A stretch of 64,000 bases of DNA from Deltaproteobacteria bacterium (GTDB lineage: Bacteria > Desulfobacterota > Desulfobaccia > Desulfobaccales > 0-14-0-80-60-11), in NCBI GenBank assembly GCA_016875015.1, contig VGSJ01000002.1, positions 12,465 to 76,464 of the forward strand. The letters run 5' to 3'. Positions 41,730 through 46,888 of the stretch are shown here, piece by piece. A program made the translations under genes and the position numbers. The notes below the pieces were generated by a model that saw only the letters and a program-made list of their open reading frames with translations, was not told where the DNA came from and searched no databases. Position 1 is the stretch's first letter. Each line of letters begins with the position of its first letter.

Positions 41730-42191
41730 ATTTATCACGCCGGCCTGTGGGGGCTGCGGGAGGGCAAGTATCAAGCCTTGGCTGAAATGGAGATGGGGGG
41801 CGCCTCCTGGAGGCCCTCGCCCTGGAAAAGCTCATCACCTCCTTCGCTGTGCCCGGTTCTAACCTGGTGGAGAAGGTGCGTTATGTAATCCCCCCGGCCC
41901 CCCTTTAGAAAAGGGGGGAGAAAGAGGGCGGGTTTATATCAATGACCTACAGTATTTTGAAGGCGTGCCCCGGAAGTCCGGGCCTTTCAGGTGGGGGGCT
42001 ATCAGGTGCTCCACAAATGGCTGAAAGACCGCAAAGGCCGCACCCTCGCCTTTGCCGACCTGCACCATTAACAGAAGGTGGTGGGGGCCCTGGCCGACAC
42101 CATCCGCCTCATGGCCGAGATCGACGCCGCCATTGACGCCCACGGCGGCTGGCCGGATGCGTTTGCTGACGGCGCTCCAGGCCACAACTGA
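41730..42191 (+). pseudogene. Decayed C-terminal remnant of a type ISP / type IIG-like restriction-modification enzyme
   Basis: Three frames must be joined: ..GGRLLEALALEKLITSFAVPGSNLVEKVRY / (about 40-nt repeat insertion) / VYINDLQYFEGVP / (1-nt loss in a C run) / EVRAFQVGGYQVLHKWLKDRKGRTLAFADLHH*QKVVGALADTIRLMAEIDAAIDAHGGWP. In-frame TAA at 42069. Confidence 0.6.
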
Positions 42192-42696
42192 CGGCGGGGC
42201 TTAGGCTCAAGTCCACAAGCAGCAGCACGCCAGGCAATGAAACCATGTCGGTCATCATGGACATAGATTTTGGATTACTTGGCGTTTTTCGGGCAGCCGG
42301 AGCGCGAGCTTGAAAAAGTTCTGGCGTGGGCCGCGCGGCCTGTGCTGCTAATCTCCAGTTTCTTGTTTTTTTGACAAGATTTTTCCTTAAACCCATTTAA
42401 CTTAGCTAAGGATTTAGTTCATTTTGTTGTTTGGTTGCGGCCTTTGGCCGCGCCGGGTTTCTCTATCAGAATAAACCGTTATGCCGAGTGGCTTGACGGC
42501 CAAAGCGCAGATGTTAGTCAAAACGTTAACAATTGCCTAAAAAATGGGCCGCGGATTTAAGCTATCTGACTATTTTTGTTAGCTATTATGGTATGGCATG
42601 AAACTGGATGAAACTGTACTACACGCACATGCTCTCCGGCGTTCACACCGGATACGGCCTTCGTGGCTTAATTACTCGCGGCCCCGTGACTTTCCG

Positions 42697-42858
42697 TTAA
42701 TGGCAGCACTTGTGTTCGTGCTGATGGTGCCCGTCTTCGTGGGTGTGCTCGTGGACGTGCGCGCCGGCCTCATGCTGGTGGTCGTGCCCGTCATGGCTGT
42801 GGGTAAATGCTTCGTGGCTATGCTCGTGCTCATGCTTGTCTTTGTTGTGGCAGCACAT
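42697..42858 (-). CDS. 53-aa His/Cys-rich microprotein (Hpn-like candidate metal-binding protein)
   Basis: Hand translation gives MCCHNKDKHEHEHSHEAFTHSHDGHDHQHEAGAHVHEHTHEDGHHQHEHKCCH*. 19 His, 4 Cys. GGAGG 10 nt upstream of the ATG. It has its own promoter. Not in the ORF track (under 60 aa). Confidence 0.65.
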   Translation of the reverse strand: MCCHNKDKHEHEHSHEAFTHSHDGHDHQHEAGAHVHEHTHEDGHHQHEHKCCH

Positions 42859-42896
42859 CTGGAATTCACCTCCTTTTCCCTATACTTTTTCAAATA

Positions 42897-42925
42897 AATA
42901 TAAACATTAGTCCGGTTGCAGTCAA
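42897..42925 (-). promoter_or_regulatory. Near-consensus sigma70-type promoter of the His-rich ORF
   Basis: Minus strand: TTGACT (42925-42920), 17 nt, TATATT (42902-42897). An imperfect palindrome TATATTTATTTGAAAAAGTATA starts in the -10 hexamer. Confidence 0.6.
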
Positions 42926-43032
42926 GGGAGCTCCGCCTCGACCGGCGACGAGAACCAGTCCGCCCCCGGCTTTAATCTGGGATAACGTTCCATGCCCCTG
43001 CCCCTCAGCCCATGGGCCCGGGTGGCCCGGGG

Positions 43033-43785
43033 TCAAACCGGGTGGCACACGGGGCAGCCCTGCAGCCGGAGGGGTTTCTCCAGGTTGCAGGAGGCCAAAA
43101 GTTCCTCGTCCTGCATGATCATTCGGGTGGGGCCGTCCGCGGCGATGCGCCCCTCCTTGAGCACCAGGGTGCGGGGGCAGAGATCCAGGACCAGGTCCAG
43201 GTCGTGGGTGGCGATAATCAGGGAATGCTCAAAAGTCTTCAAGAGATCGATAAGCTGCCGGCGGGTCTTGGGGTCGAGATTGGAGCTCGGCTCATCCATG
43301 ACCAGGATGGCCGGGGCCAGCGACAGGACTGCGGCGATGGCCACGGCGCGCTTTTCCCCGCCGGACAGATGGTAAGGCGGGCGGTCCTTCAGGTGAACCG
43401 CGCCCACCGCGGCCAGGGCCTGCATCACCTGCCGGTCCACCTCCTCCGGGGTCAGGCCCAGATTTAAGGGACCGAAGGCCACGTCATCATAAACCATCGG
43501 CATAAACAGCTGGTCGTCAGGGTCCTGAAAGATCAGGCCCACGGTGCGCCGCACGTGCTTCAGGGTTTTCTTGGTCACGGGCATTTCACCGATGCGCACC
43601 CGCCCGGCTTCCGGCAGCAGGCAACCATTGAACTGGAGGAGCAGGGTGGACTTGCCGGCGCCGTTGGCGCCCACCAGGGCCACCTTCTCTCCATGGGTAA
43701 TCCTGAATGAGATCCCCTTCAAAACCTGGTTGCCGTCCGGGTAGCTATAGTAGAGGTCGTCGATGTCAATGATATGATGGCTCAT
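43033..43785 (-). CDS. cbiO: ECF transporter ATPase (CbiO-type)
   Basis: GANGAGKSTLL Walker A, LSGGEKRAVAIA signature, ILVMDEP Walker B. Start moved to MSHHIIDID with an ATGA overlap on the cbiQ stop. Confidence 0.85.
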   Translation of the reverse strand: MSHHIIDIDDLYYSYPDGNQVLKGISFRITHGEKVALVGANGAGKSTLLLQFNGCLLPEAGRVRIGEMPVTKKTLKHVRRTVGLIFQDPDDQLFMPMVYDDVAFGPLNLGLTPEEVDRQVMQALAAVGAVHLKDRPPYHLSGGEKRAVAIAAVLSLAPAILVMDEPSSNLDPKTRRQLIDLLKTFEHSLIIATHDLDLVLDLCPRTLVLKEGRIAADGPTRMIMQDEELLASCNLEKPLRLQGCPVCHPV

Positions 43786-44594
43786 TTGACCAGCCCCATT
43801 ACCCAGGTTCCCCACCATTGGGAGATATTATAAAGTCTGAGCAGCACGAACAGACCGGTCCAGCCCAGGAAAAACCCCACATCCCGGCCGTGGAGGCGCA
43901 GTGGCCGGAGCAGGCGGATTTCGCCGTCAAACCCCCGGGAGAGCATGGCCAGATGCAGGCGCTGGGCCCGGTCCAGGGTGCGCAACAGCAAGTGGCCCAG
44001 CAGGGAACCGTAGGTCCCAAAGCCCAGGCCGCGGCCGTCAAACGAGCGCAACGCCCGGGCCCGCACCATCCGGGCGGCTTCGCCCCCCAGCACGAAAAGA
44101 TAGCGGTAGAGGAACAGCAGTTGGAGAGCGAAGACCCGGGGCATCCCCAGCCGCTCCAGCGCGGCGCACACCTGGTGAAAGCCGGTGACGGCGATGAGAA
44201 TCAGGGCGGCGCTCACCGTCAGGACGAACCTGAGCATGATGGAGGCAAACGAGACCCAACCGCCGGAAATGGCCAGGGGACCGAGGTGGACCATGACCTG
44301 CCGGTCCAGCAGGGGGTTGAAGATGCCGATGAAAACCGCGAAGGGGGCGGCGATCAAGATTTTCTTCCCCAGATACCCCACGGGCACATTTCCCAGGGCG
44401 ATGAGCGCCACCGGGTAGAGAATAAAGGGAATCAAGCTGCCGACGGCGTACTTGGGGAAGGAGACCACGGCCACGATGAATACCATGGTGGTGAGCAGTT
44501 TAACCCGGGGGTCCAGCCGGTGGATGGGGGTCGCCTGGTAGGACAGCGTCTCCAGATAGCCGATATTATAAAGGGAATTTTCGATGGTGCCCAT
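43782..44594 (-). CDS. cbiQ: ECF transporter transmembrane T component (CbiQ-type)
   Basis: IHRLDPRVKLL....F..... and ...ARALRSF motifs typical of CbiQ/EcfT. Confidence 0.85.
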   Translation of the reverse strand: MGTIENSLYNIGYLETLSYQATPIHRLDPRVKLLTTMVFIVAVVSFPKYAVGSLIPFILYPVALIALGNVPVGYLGKKILIAAPFAVFIGIFNPLLDRQVMVHLGPLAISGGWVSFASIMLRFVLTVSAALILIAVTGFHQVCAALERLGMPRVFALQLLFLYRYLFVLGGEAARMVRARALRSFDGRGLGFGTYGSLLGHLLLRTLDRAQRLHLAMLSRGFDGEIRLLRPLRLHGRDVGFFLGWTGLFVLLRLYNISQWWGTWVMGLVK

Positions 44595-44673
44595 GCCGGC
44601 GCCTCAGAAAGACCGGGGGCGGGATCTGGTTTCGAACCCCGCCCCGGGTGTGCCGCCCCGGGAAAACCCGGGA

Positions 44674-45708
44674 TCAGCCGTGGTGGCCGGCATACTTTTT
44701 CAGCCCGAAGCCGATGGCTCCGACCAGGAGCAGGGTGATGACGGCCCCCAGCACCCCCGCCAGGGATTTGCCGGGGTTGACGTCGGGCCAGCTCTCTTCT
44801 TTTTTGGCCTCCGGCTCGCCTTCCGGCTTCCTGAAGTCATAGTCCGGCAGGAAGGCGAGCTTCTCCTGAAGCGCCGCCAGCACCCCGTGAGCCCCGGTCT
44901 TGGGCGCCTGAACCTCCTCCTTGCCCGTGACCCCCTTGATGGCCCACTCCAGCCCGTCCGGATGGGTGGAGGCGAACCAGGAGAGGAACCCCCCGGTGAA
45001 CACGGCCAGCGCCACCAGGCCGAGGATGACCGGCTTGAAAGAGCGGGGCGCGCCCGACGCCATAGGCGGCGCCATCTCCAGGATTTCCGGCCGGGCCTTC
45101 CAGACGAAGGCCACCACCGTAGCGGTGACGAGGCCTTCCACGACGCCGATGGCCAGGTGGATCGGCTGCATCAAGAGCATGAAGGTGAAGAAGGGCAACT
45201 CCGAAATGCCCGAGAACCAAGTTTCCCCCACCACCCCAAACGCGCCCATTTGCAGGCTCAGGATCGCGGCGGCCATGGCTCCCAGCAGAATGCGCCCCTG
45301 AGTCGGTCGCTCTCCCACCAGCTTTTTATAAATAAACGGATACGCGATAAAACAGGGGAAAAGGCCGAGATTGAAAATATTGCATCCCAGGGCCAAGAGC
45401 CCCCCGTCGGCGAAGAACAGGGCCTGCACCGTGAGGACGGAGGCCATGGTGAGGAACGCGGCATAAGGTCCCAGCAGGATGGCGAGAATCATGCCGCCGC
45501 CCAGGTGGCCGCTGGAACCGGTGGCGGGGATGGTGAAGTTGATCATTTGGGCCGCAAACACGAAGGCCCCCAGGACCCCCATGAGGGGGAGCTTGCGGTC
45601 GTCCATGTCCTGCTTGAGCTTCCTGGCGCTGTACACGGTGAGCCCGGCGGTGGCGGCCCACATCGCACCGCCCACCGCGGGGGAAATCAAGGCATCCGCC
45701 ATGTGCAT
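44674..45708 (-). CDS. cbiM: Ni/Co ECF substrate-capture component CbiM fused to a PDGLE domain
   Basis: N-terminus MHMADALISPAVGG (the metal-ligating Met-His N-terminus of CbiM/NikM), a polytopic core, and C-terminal ...STHPDGLEW... plus one TM helix. Start chosen at the second of three ATGs (GGAGAT spacing). Confidence 0.8.
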   Translation of the reverse strand: MHMADALISPAVGGAMWAATAGLTVYSARKLKQDMDDRKLPLMGVLGAFVFAAQMINFTIPATGSSGHLGGGMILAILLGPYAAFLTMASVLTVQALFFADGGLLALGCNIFNLGLFPCFIAYPFIYKKLVGERPTQGRILLGAMAAAILSLQMGAFGVVGETWFSGISELPFFTFMLLMQPIHLAIGVVEGLVTATVVAFVWKARPEILEMAPPMASGAPRSFKPVILGLVALAVFTGGFLSWFASTHPDGLEWAIKGVTGKEEVQAPKTGAHGVLAALQEKLAFLPDYDFRKPEGEPEAKKEESWPDVNPGKSLAGVLGAVITLLLVGAIGFGLKKYAGHHG

Positions 45709-45953
45709 ATGCATATCTCCATCAAGATGTAGTTCGGGGGATCTGCCCCCGGCTTCCGAGAGGCCTGGCCAGTTGGCCCGCCGCACCTTGCCCCGGGACC
45801 TCGGGCGAAAAAGGCGCAAAAAAAAGCCGCGAACTGCCCGGCGCCTTCAAACGCCTGTGCCTTCGTGGCTTTCTTAAAGTGCTGCTGCGAGTGGCTTCCC
45901 GGAGTTCATCCCCGGATTATGATTATTTTACCCCGGATGAGGCGGTTTGTCAA
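45709..45953 (-). promoter_or_regulatory. Promoter plus about 210-nt structured leader of the ECF operon
   Basis: Minus strand: TTGACA (45953-48), 17 nt, TAAAAT (45930-25). The leader contains hairpins and a GC stem followed by U8 (45845-45818). The inverted repeat TCATCC/GGATGA brackets the -10 hexamer. Confidence 0.5.
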
Positions 45954-46021
45954 GAATTTTGCCGCGCCATTTTGCCGCCAGAATTTTGCCGCGCCACGGT
46001 GACGCCTGCGGCCGGGGAGGA

Positions 46022-46888
46022 TTACCCGCCAAGCTGATATTCCCGGCGGCGCCAGGCTTTCAGGGCTTCCACCAGATTGTAGGTGAGCCTGTCTTGGCAG
46101 GGCATGCTCCCCAGGGAGATTTCCGGCTTGTTGAGGCCGTGGTAGTCGGACCCGCCGGTGATCAGGAGGTCAAGCTCCCGGGCCAGCTTCAGGTACAGGG
46201 CTTGCTGCTCCGGGGTGTGCTCGGAGTAAAAAACTTCCAGCCCCGCCAACCCCTGGTCTTTCAGCTCGATGACCAGGTTTTTCAGGGCGTAGGCCGAGCC
46301 CTGGTTCAGGGTAAACGGGTGGGCCAGGACCGGGATGCCCTTCGCCTCCCGGATCATGGTCAGGGCCTGGTCCGGGGGAAAGCGGAACTTGCTGACGTAG
46401 GCGGGCTTGCGCCAGCCCAGGAAGCGGTCGAAAGCCTCTTGCAGGTCTTGGACGCAGCCCGACTCCATCAAGGCCCGGGCGATGTGGGGCCGGCCCACCT
46501 GCCCGCCGCCGGAGATTTCCTCCACCCGGGCCATGGTGATGGGGACGCCCAGGGCGTTGAGTTTGGCGATGATCTGGGGGTTGCGGTCGATCCGGGCCTG
46601 TTTGAGCACCGCCAGGCGCTCATCCAGCCGGCCGTTGTGGTAGTCCACGAACAGCCCCAGGATGTGCATGGTGCCGCCGGGGAACTGGGCGCTGATCTCC
46701 ACCCCGGGGATGATCTCCACCCCGAGGCGGTCCCCCGCGGCCACGGCCTCGGGCAGGCCGTCCACGGTGTCGTGGTCGGTCAGGGCCATGGCCATGAGGC
46801 CGCCTTCTTTTGCCAGGCGCACCACCTCCGCCGGACGGTAAGAACCGTCCGAGGCGCTGGAGTGTACGTGCAGGTCGATGAGCTTCAT
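46022..46888 (-). CDS. PHP-domain phosphoesterase (TrpH/YciV-like)
   Basis: MKLIDLHVHSSASDGSY...ALTDHDT. Confidence 0.85.
   Translation of the reverse strand: MKLIDLHVHSSASDGSYRPAEVVRLAKEGGLMAMALTDHDTVDGLPEAVAAGDRLGVEIIPGVEISAQFPGGTMHILGLFVDYHNGRLDERLAVLKQARIDRNPQIIAKLNALGVPITMARVEEISGGGQVGRPHIARALMESGCVQDLQEAFDRFLGWRKPAYVSKFRFPPDQALTMIREAKGIPVLAHPFTLNQGSAYALKNLVIELKDQGLAGLEVFYSEHTPEQQALYLKLARELDLLITGGSDYHGLNKPEISLGSMPCQDRLTYNLVEALKAWRRREYQLGG

Follow-up and report, generated by a model that had tools for sequence, protein, structure and literature searches.

A fixed-length His/Cys-rich microprotein family linked to nickel and cobalt uptake genes and to a candidate regulatory RNA

Next to the genes for a nickel/cobalt importer, in a 64,000-nucleotide (nt) stretch of a Deltaproteobacteria bacterium genome (assembly GCA_016875015.1, contig VGSJ01000002.1, positions 12,465 to 76,464 of the forward strand; hereafter the window, in whose own numbering positions are given), lies a short, histidine-rich open reading frame (ORF), which raises the question of whether it is a gene at all and, if so, what its product might do beside a metal importer. 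The 53-residue ORF is a real, strongly conserved protein-coding gene, and its product, called the microprotein below, belongs to a previously undescribed family of fixed length. The gene and its signals are the following:

42858..42697, minus strand: gene of the 53-amino-acid (aa) His/Cys-rich microprotein, ATG to TAA, stop codon included
42873..42869, minus strand: Shine-Dalgarno site GGAGG, 10 nt 5' of the microprotein ATG
42925..42897, minus strand: sigma-70-type promoter, TTGACT (42925-42920), 17-nt spacer, TATATT (42902-42897), with 10/12 consensus matches

The translation, MCCHNKDKHEHEHSHEAFTHSHDGHDHQHEAGAHVHEHTHEDGHHQHEHKCCH, contains 19 His, 4 Cys, 7 Glu, and 4 Asp among its 53 aa and is laid out as MCCH-xKDK-HEHEHxH-x4-HxHDGHEHxH-x4-HxHEHxH-xDG-HHxHxH-x-CCH, with a longest His run of 2 (H44-H45) and the Cys pairs in the terminal MCCH and KCCH. 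Histidine makes up 36% of the microprotein vs. ∼3.5% of the long ORFs of the window, where it is the sole ORF of such kind. The gene was first proposed in a sequence-only reading of this DNA, and its coordinates, its translation, the GGAGG 10 nt before its ATG, and the TTGACT-17-TATATT promoter were all reproduced, with a recount agreeing on 19 His, 4 Cys, and 11 Asp/Glu. That reading had also called the ORF unlisted, which is true of the ORF track that it was given but not of the JGI annotation, whose gene caller had called the 53-aa gene on contig Ga0194113_10000278; a protein identical to the window microprotein is present on 7 contigs from several samples.

Homologues were collected by scanning species-representative genomes with a DNA pattern, the back-translated N-terminus, and since this pattern carries ∼45 bits, chance alone should give far less than one match. 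The scan found 59 further loci (cited below by L numbers), with the ORF intact in the His frame in 59/59 and exactly 53 aa long in 52/59, and the hosts are Desulfobaccales/Desulfobacca, Syntrophobacterales, other Thermodesulfobacteriota, Thermodesulfovibrionales, Nitrospira(ceae), and Methanothrix/Methanotrichaceae. Across the 53 distinct full-length sequences used for the selection analysis, 17 His, all 4 Cys, D7, G24, and E37 are invariant, K6, K8, E10, E12, D23, E26, D42, and G43 are near-invariant, and the M-C-C-H start is kept in 53/53. Two long ORFs overlap the gene, both present as the earlier reading had described them, and its view that they are shadows of the His frame is borne out by the ratios of non-synonymous to synonymous polymorphism (pN/pS):

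42858..42697, minus strand: His frame, codon-position entropy 0.37/0.42/1.06, pN/pS 0.175, no stop codons
42672..42893, minus strand: T/S-rich frame, pN/pS 1.83, stops in 18/53
42598..42897, plus strand: antisense V/M/L-rich frame, pN/pS 1.58, stops in 5/53

The five frames other than the His frame show pN/pS of 1.3-1.9 or universal stop codons. Two checks had been proposed for the locus, namely, whether orthologous loci keep the frame and which frame is under purifying selection, and both come out in favor of the His frame.

Protein-level searches had given a different picture, as the only relatives they returned were truncated or changed frame midway, matching in just one half (N- or C-terminal), which at first pointed to a frame that is unstable or undergoes programmed frameshifting. 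Because these searches misled, the DNA-level scan was undertaken, and its intact loci overturned that idea. Most of the frame-broken relatives lie on error-prone long-read contigs, where neighboring genes are fragmented too and errors fall at C homopolymers. No Pfam or NCBIfam family, PDB entry, or literature match was found for the 53-aa microprotein, none of 10 intact family members (including the window's own) was found in a 15-billion-protein collection, and an exhaustive phmmer search over 1.84 billion representatives gave matches only from the microprotein's own family. Two irregular copies were seen in addition. In L011 (973-1110) and L012 (518-655), from two JGI samples, an identical +1 C insertion (GGGCACCGAGCAC) splits the ORF while the adjoining genes look intact, and the split ORF may be a real pseudogene or an assembly error shared by the two. 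In L014 (1012-1284), a larger protein ends in the C-terminal half of the module (..HTHEHTHNDGHHEHGHTCCH*), joined in frame and still followed by the usual 3' element, a fusion that is possibly chimeric (contig coverage 1.5x). The Methanothrix/Methanotrichaceae versions (L036, L042, L054, L060, and L065) are shorter, at 37-39 aa (e.g., MCCHNSDKHEHKHKHGSGEEHSHEHCHDEEHHHEHHCCH), and the occurrence of the family in both bacteria and Methanothrix archaea suggests that it moved horizontally within consortia of anaerobic acetate degraders.

The proposal that the gene forms a separate transcription unit also proved sound when it was examined family-wide. Among the 51 bacterial homologues with enough upstream sequence, a sigma-70-like promoter was found in 41 (vs. 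8% of shuffled sequence), with the -10 ending 30-54 nt (median 34) 5' of the ATG, and a Shine-Dalgarno site in 49, while 53 of 54 bacterial homologues carry a dedicated terminator-type 3' element. The Methanothrix copies have a conserved AT-rich box upstream, which is TATA-like by eye. A Fur/Zur/NikR-type box common to the microprotein promoters was considered and rejected, as the spacers show only clade-specific conservation and no operator is definable.

In the window, the microprotein ORF begins 174 nt past the cbiO stop and has the same orientation as the importer genes, as had been noted, and the importer domains were confirmed with Pfam and NCBIfam:

45708..43033, minus strand: energy-coupling factor (ECF) Ni/Co importer upstream of the microprotein gene, consisting of CbiM+PDGLE, CbiQ, and CbiO
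45708..44674, minus strand: CbiM+PDGLE, with the JGI start MHMHMADAL
44594..43782, minus strand: CbiQ
43785 or 43818..43033, minus strand: CbiO, with two candidate starts

The link to Ni/Co import drawn from this arrangement turned out to be family-wide, not local. Neighboring ORFs were clustered and annotated across 60 loci, with metal context counted within 4 kb, and 41/60 have one or more specific genes of metal uptake or trafficking within that distance. The recurrent neighbors are CbiQ (19 loci), CbiM (16), a Phenol_MetA_deg-like outer-membrane channel (14), periplasmic CbiK (13), NikK/DUF4198 (9), NikL (5; NCBIfam NF058648, above cut-off), DUF3842 (4), and ExbBD (2), with CooT in at least 5 loci and a TonB-dependent receptor downstream of the microprotein gene in L073. 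NikK and NikL are nickel-specific additions to the M/Q/O core (PMC2667541; PMC11247825). In the 5/5 Methanothrix loci, a cation diffusion facilitator (CDF) exporter with a C-terminal Nitro_FeMo-Co-like domain is divergent to the gene. Periplasmic CbiK (cluster C5) is convergent to the microprotein gene in its 13 loci (L022, L043, L048, and 10 others), and an 85-aa uncharacterized gene stands beside it in 8 of the 13.

The same link is seen in a set of paralogues. Nineteen proteins of 111-113 aa join a His-rich module (MCKKD.HEHEH...GHH.H.H), ∼60% identical to the microprotein, to a CopZ-like heavy-metal-associated (HMA) domain with GMTCEHC, and four of their genes are placed as follows:

L197, 892-1233: HMA-fusion gene
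L198, 1110-1451: HMA-fusion gene
L199, 626-967: HMA-fusion gene
L195, 8001-8336: HMA-fusion gene

In L197-L199, NikK is followed by the HMA fusion, the outer-membrane channel, a MamS/MamX-like gene, and then the free 53-aa gene, 1.7 kb downstream of the fusion; L199 and the window share their metagenome of origin. In L195, the HMA fusion follows a TonB-dependent transporter, ExbB-ExbD-TonB, and DUF3842-CooT. That a metallochaperone fold has taken up the module as its N-terminal arm, as read from these sequences, is the strongest indirect evidence that the module may be a metal-handling domain. A 17-codon mini-ORF (MCKKDQHEHEHTHEGKA*) with its own Shine-Dalgarno site, located after NikK and just 5' of the microprotein promoter in L002 (2606-2659) and L003, resembles what is left of a deleted HMA-fusion gene.

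Past its stop codon, the microprotein gene carries a conserved RNA element, which the sequence-only reading had overlooked, with a typical 3' flank of TAA-C-GGAAAGCCACGA-(small hairpin)-AAGCCACGAAGGC-(UGAA-loop hairpin)-GCGTTCGTGGCTTTCC-TTTTT. The exact 12-mer AAGCCACGAAGG occurs 24-30 nt past the stop in 48/54 bacterial loci and as close variants in five more; the Methanothrix copies lack the bacterial element. In the window, its parts are the following:

42685..42695, minus strand: copy A, GGAAAGTCACG (family consensus GGAAAGCCACGA; partner 3' strand in relatives TCGTGGCTTTCC)
42657..42669, minus strand: copy B, the invariant 13-mer AAGCCACGAAGGC, 5' strand of the family terminator stem
42636..42651, minus strand: inner hairpin CCGGTG[TGAA]CGCCGG with a UGAA-type loop
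42539..42684, minus strand: window-specific substitute stem, GGGCCGCG (42684-42677) pairing CGCGGCCC (42553-42546), then A and T6 (42544-42539)

Copy A sits 4 nt past the stop codon, and a single 3' strand is able to pair with either 5' copy, A or B. The A:3' helix is 95.6% paired, with AU-to-GC compensation in Nitrospirota and a triple compensation in L024 (A, AAGGCC; B, GGGGCC; 3', GGCCTT), and the inner-hairpin stem covaries among homologues while the GAA loop is kept. The strands of the element are invariant because the complementarity is three-way, and the gene always terminates because both pairings, A:3' and B:3', end at the U-tract. The window copy has lost the 3' strand, with the consensus CGTTCGTGGCTTTCC-T5 degenerate after 42632 when compared with L057 and L070. 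Because its copy A is mutated (GGAAAGTCACGGGGCCGCG), pairing with CGCGGCCC, which precedes T6, 125 nt downstream is possible; the fold of 42530-42700 has a z of -2.28, and this long-range GC stem with T6 may be a replacement terminator. One-mismatch copies of the 12-mer also occur at window positions 437 and 539, within ∼100-nt direct repeats that resemble tetratricopeptide repeat (TPR) coding sequence by eye; these look like chance and were rejected as RNA elements.

The 13-mer of copy B is identical to the core of a leader motif found before nickel-uptake genes, and the cbiM leader of the window, which is terminator-type, belongs to the same RNA family as the microprotein 3' element:

45953-45925, minus strand: importer promoter, TTGACA-17-TAAAAT
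45915-45899, minus strand: leader P1 hairpin, CCGGGG[AUGAA]CUCCGG
45871-45859, minus strand: leader 13-mer AAGCCACGAAGGC, 5' strand of the terminator, followed by the inner hairpin
45833-45818, minus strand: leader 3' strand TTCGCGGCTT, overlapping the U-tract

A mechanical 381-aa CbiM ORF (44674-45819, minus strand) reads back through this leader, and the JGI start at 45708 (MHMHMADAL..., 344 aa) is credible as the right one, from which a ∼210-nt 5' untranslated region with a terminator follows. The family layout comprises a promoter, P1 with an NNGAA loop, a linker of ∼28-35 nt, a AAGCCACGAAGGC stem around a covarying hairpin, and U7-8, and many leaders begin directly at the promoter. A scan of metagenomes with a leader-specific DNA pattern gave at least 120 loci (L075-L194 among them), and leaders also occur at L009, L010, L017, L020, and L070. 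Among the matches listed of this pattern, the first downstream gene encodes an outer-membrane channel in 16 loci, NikK/DUF4198 in 14, DUF3842 (a cooT-linked family) in 10, an ECF S-component, a TonB-dependent receptor, or CbiM-PDGLE in 7 each, an OprB-like porin in 6, and TonB or Peripla_BP_2 in 5 each, with single cases of FecCD, a NikA-like SBP_bac_5 protein, ExbB, and a permease with a His-rich loop.

With a covariance model (R1) built from 13 leaders, 114 instances were detected. Compensatory changes occur at 6/6 pairs in each of P1 and the inner hairpin P3, and the outer stem is invariant. In the R1-structured alignment, which was itself fitted to the model structure, 92.5% of cells are paired vs. 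74.3% in shuffles, and the covariation score is 0.272 vs. 0.084 in shuffles (reached by 0/500) and at most 0.058 with the 3' partners slid. R1 matches the window cbiM leader over the full model (45809-45932, 115 bits, E = 7e-23) and the 3' elements of 18 microprotein homologues at positions 51-111 (P2+P3; E = 1e-4 to 1e-2), and full-length R1 leaders are present in ∼25/60 microprotein loci. Most P1 and P3 loops read NNGAA or NGAA, and the 13-mer alone can fold as GCC[ACGAA]GGC in competition with the terminator. Rfam 15 gave no match over the window at the gathering score and none relevant over 42400-46100 at E ≤ 5, and no published description of the leader family was found in a literature search. 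Three other identities were tried and rejected. A NikR-like DNA operator does not fit an inverted repeat of the 13-mer with a spacing of 15-40 nt, a covarying inner stem, and a U-tract that follows; a cobalamin-riboswitch expression platform does not fit cobalamin aptamers that lie 1.4-5 kb off, before other genes; and a pseudoknot joining the P1 loop to the 3' strand of the terminator fits 3 leaders and fails in others. The leader RNA is a candidate for a new cis-regulatory element of nickel (or cobalt) acquisition, and since its core is common to the microprotein 3' element and the uptake leaders, it suggests that buffer gene and importers lie within one RNA-level circuit.

As to function, the microprotein is probably a cytoplasmic metal-binding acceptor, buffer, or chaperone for Ni (possibly Co) from the adjoining importers. 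We infer metal binding, Ni over Co as the metal, chemistry of the amino-terminal Cu- and Ni-binding (ATCUN) type, and the direction of transfer, whereas the cytoplasmic location follows from the lack of a signal peptide. In the proposed mechanism, a transcript of ∼290 nt from the gene's own promoter would be translated into an apo peptide that is predicted to be disordered (AlphaFold predicted local distance difference test score, pLDDT, 50). Four HxHxHxH-type clusters, split by 4-residue linkers or Asp-Gly turns, could provide several N/O donor sites together with the acidic residues, and the invariant CCH termini could contribute thiolates. Methionine aminopeptidase permits Cys as the second residue, and removal of Met1 would leave NH2-Cys-Cys-His, an ATCUN-like site with two thiolates that would favor square-planar Ni(II). 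Imported metal would be accepted and buffered by the microprotein, keeping free Ni/Co low, and then handed on to CooT-, HypAB-, or chelatase-type partners and enzymes. The short Methanothrix version beside a CDF exporter would fit a general buffering role.

Several observations weigh against this assignment of a nickel acceptor, and some of them favor a broader one. Roughly 18/60 loci have no metal-related neighbor, mostly in Nitrospirota or at contig edges, and most Nitrospirota copies adjoin pheT, radical S-adenosylmethionine (radical-SAM) genes, or transposases. A cobalamin riboswitch precedes the convergent CbiK operon in L022, L043, and L048 and makes the metal ambiguous; because CbiK and this riboswitch are convergent to the microprotein gene, Ni-type and corrinoid/Co-type uptake appear interleaved in these islands. 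The direction of metal flow is similarly ambiguous, with importers as the bacterial partners but an exporter in archaea, and neither CDF nor HMA partners are nickel-specific. A metal regulator was not seen, an E. coli NikR query giving no match in a crude search over ∼1.2 Mb of loci (a weak negative), and the single-sequence AlphaFold model (pLDDT 50, without secondary structure) yields no fold. The source annotation of the HMA paralogue is 'copper chaperone'. A buffer for divalent metals at large (Zn, Cu, Fe, or Cd), or a Cu/Zn chaperone travelling with metal-transport islands, would agree with that annotation and with the paralogue's best scores being against CopZ models, as well as with the CDF exporter beside the Methanothrix copies (a family best known for Zn/Co/Cd), the Fur-family genes that follow the microprotein in L001 and L062, and the general chemistry of His/Cys-rich peptides, which bind Zn and Cu well. 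This broader role is nevertheless judged unlikely, since the HMA match reaches 60 bits, below the NCBIfam CopZ cut-off of 85, no Znu/Zur or CopA neighbors or other clusters recur, and the partners that do recur (NikK, NikL, CbiMQO, CooT, and DUF3842) mark Ni (or Co) systems.

The conserved RNA element opens another line of explanation, in which the transcript would act mainly as a regulatory RNA whose 3' domain (copies A and B, two hairpins, and terminator) would work in one circuit with the Ni-uptake leaders, e.g., as a decoy for a ligand or factor reading the 13-mer, with the peptide secondary or the gene dual-function. The 13-mer and terminator strand are invariant across phyla, beyond the conservation of synonymous sites in the ORF, two alternative 5' partners of one 3' strand are both kept (with the L024 compensation), the same core recurs in the uptake-gene leaders, and because most copies lack a co-oriented gene downstream, the 3' element is not simply the leader of a next gene. 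Protein-level selection (pN/pS 0.175, fixed length, and non-His invariants), the recurrence of the module as a protein domain in the HMA fusions, the Methanothrix ORFs kept without the RNA element, and the window copy, which lost the 3' strand while its ORF stayed intact, make this distinctly unlikely. Still less probable, and in effect rejected, is a hisL-like His-codon leader peptide in which ribosome progress would control the structure 4 nt past the stop: although 19/53 codons are for His, copy A begins inside the footprint of a ribosome at the stop codon, and alternative A:3' and B:3' pairings exist, both pairings end in one U-tract, so that neither is an antiterminator and no exclusive terminator/antiterminator pair is formed. 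Moreover, the downstream genes are mostly convergent or unrelated in place of a regulated co-oriented operon, no his biosynthesis genes lie nearby, the His codons are interspersed and not consecutive, and conservation is as strong at Cys, Asp, Gly, Glu, and Lys as at His. The low complexity of the CAC/CAT/GAG-rich stretch and the frame-broken look of its protein-database relatives would suit a chance ORF, or a gene in an overlapping frame, but the 59/59 homologues intact in the His frame alone, the stops or pN/pS >1.3 of the other frames, and the origin of the broken relatives mostly in error-prone long-read contigs refute this reading, to which next to no probability is given.

If the microprotein is taken as a nickel acceptor or buffer, the nearest known counterparts are Hpn and Hpn-2 of gastric Helicobacter, to which the sequence-only reading had likened it. 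The likeness stands for composition (His content and Cys pairs) but not for homology, as BLASTP against H. pylori Hpn gave E = 0.16 over 8 residues and none of the phmmer matches is Hpn-like. Measured by the description of Hpn as small, cytosolic, and >30% His with Cys pairs, the microprotein agrees with its 53 aa, 36% His, and two CC. Like Hpn and Hpn-2, it is free-standing, within ∼50-70 aa, without a signal peptide, and very high in His; with Hpn it further shares two Cys-Cys pairs, a link to nickel supply, and a presumed multi-site, moderate-affinity metal binding. Unlike Hpn, which has poly-His runs (6-7) and EEGCC repeats, neither of which occurs here, the microprotein has a fixed 53-aa length, HxH alternation, and invariant CCH at both ends. 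Only gastric Helicobacter have Hpn (PMC4671568), while the microprotein occurs in Desulfobacterota, Nitrospirota, and Methanothrix, at importer loci and with a conserved RNA element at its 3' side.

Other nickel proteins share single features. The tails of CooJ, HypB, UreE, and SlyD, which take up Ni(II) for enzyme maturation, are likewise His/Cys-rich and probably disordered, but in the microprotein the His-rich segment is the entire protein with no folded domain attached. CooT, whose genes occur at the same loci, also has a Cys directly after Met1 (its N-terminal Cys2 is a nickel ligand), and yet no similarity to CooT (PF10133) or other Pfam families was detected. Paralogues with the same module and a CopZ-type HMA domain share NikK operons with the free 53-aa form; unlike CopZ (PF00403), the microprotein has no HMA domain or MxCxxC motif, and the HMA paralogue has no CCH termini. 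A test against bacterial metallothioneins (SmtA/BmtA, MymT; Metallothio_Pro), whose metal clusters are dominated by Cys, was negative, with only 4 Cys and no Pfam match. By analogy with the known chemistry of ATCUN peptides and of the 'nickel hook' of nickel superoxide dismutase (NiSOD), the Met1-less microprotein would offer His3, a free amine, and thiolates; in contrast to ordinary ATCUN peptides, it adds two Cys, and its C-terminal CCH has no counterpart. The microprotein is set apart by its strict length, alternating HxH clusters, CCH termini, taxonomic range, and genomic wiring.

The leader RNA can be compared in the same way. Like the NiCo (czcD) riboswitch, it is a structured leader with an intrinsic terminator before metal-transport genes, but the NiCo riboswitch precedes exporters and the leader RNA precedes importers, and as in terminator-embedded aptamers (HMP-PP/thiS), conserved nucleotides lie inside the terminator stem. 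The dual-hairpin sites of ANTAR and guanidine-II/IV resemble it as well, with two or three small hairpins and similar loops; a crude search with a P. aeruginosa AmiR query (ANTAR) gave no match over ∼1.2 Mb of loci, a weak negative. A tentative extension, possible but doubtful, is a two-part nickel-homeostasis module of the microprotein and a NikR-independent riboregulator of a new class, acting on Ni (or Co) acquisition genes (a riboswitch sensing metal or another ligand, or the target of an antitermination factor), in which the microprotein mRNA would carry a non-switching sensor copy. The second 5' strand on this mRNA would then ensure termination in either state, and it would follow from the non-switching copy that buffer and importers are read by one signal, or that the mRNA is a decoy. 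NikR-independent regulation of nickel uptake has long been implied by comparative genomics (PMC2667541), and an RNA element common to buffer and importers is a concrete candidate for it.

Except in Helicobacter and E. coli, little is understood of how Ni and Co get from the importers to the chaperones of enzyme maturation without the cell being poisoned, and the microprotein, which can be chemically synthesized, is a testable candidate for the missing cytoplasmic Ni acceptor or buffer. Its carriers, acetate-oxidizing sulfate reducers, syntrophs, Nitrospirota, and Methanothrix, are important in carbon cycling and depend heavily on Ni/Co enzymes such as CO dehydrogenase/acetyl-CoA synthase (CODH/ACS), hydrogenases, and F430 and corrinoid proteins. 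Low-complexity microproteins of this sort are systematically overlooked by protein catalogues, and the linked RNA family is possibly a more novel lead than the microprotein itself.

Beyond the microprotein gene, a 1.4-kb gene-poor gap separates it from a TPR/YbgF-like gene, and at ∼41958-42191 on the plus strand within this gap lies what remains of the extreme C-terminus of a Type ISP restriction-modification enzyme, interrupted by an in-frame stop (last 50 residues, Pfam Type_ISP_C positions 290-341, E = 4e-7). The 83-aa 'gene' that JGI placed at 41934..42185 (minus strand) is probably an antisense shadow of this remnant. The stretch 42200-42640, past the microprotein, is AT-richer, and because the AT-richer DNA holds the Type ISP remnant with its in-frame stop, the two together are probably the scar of an insertion or rearrangement beyond the microprotein gene.

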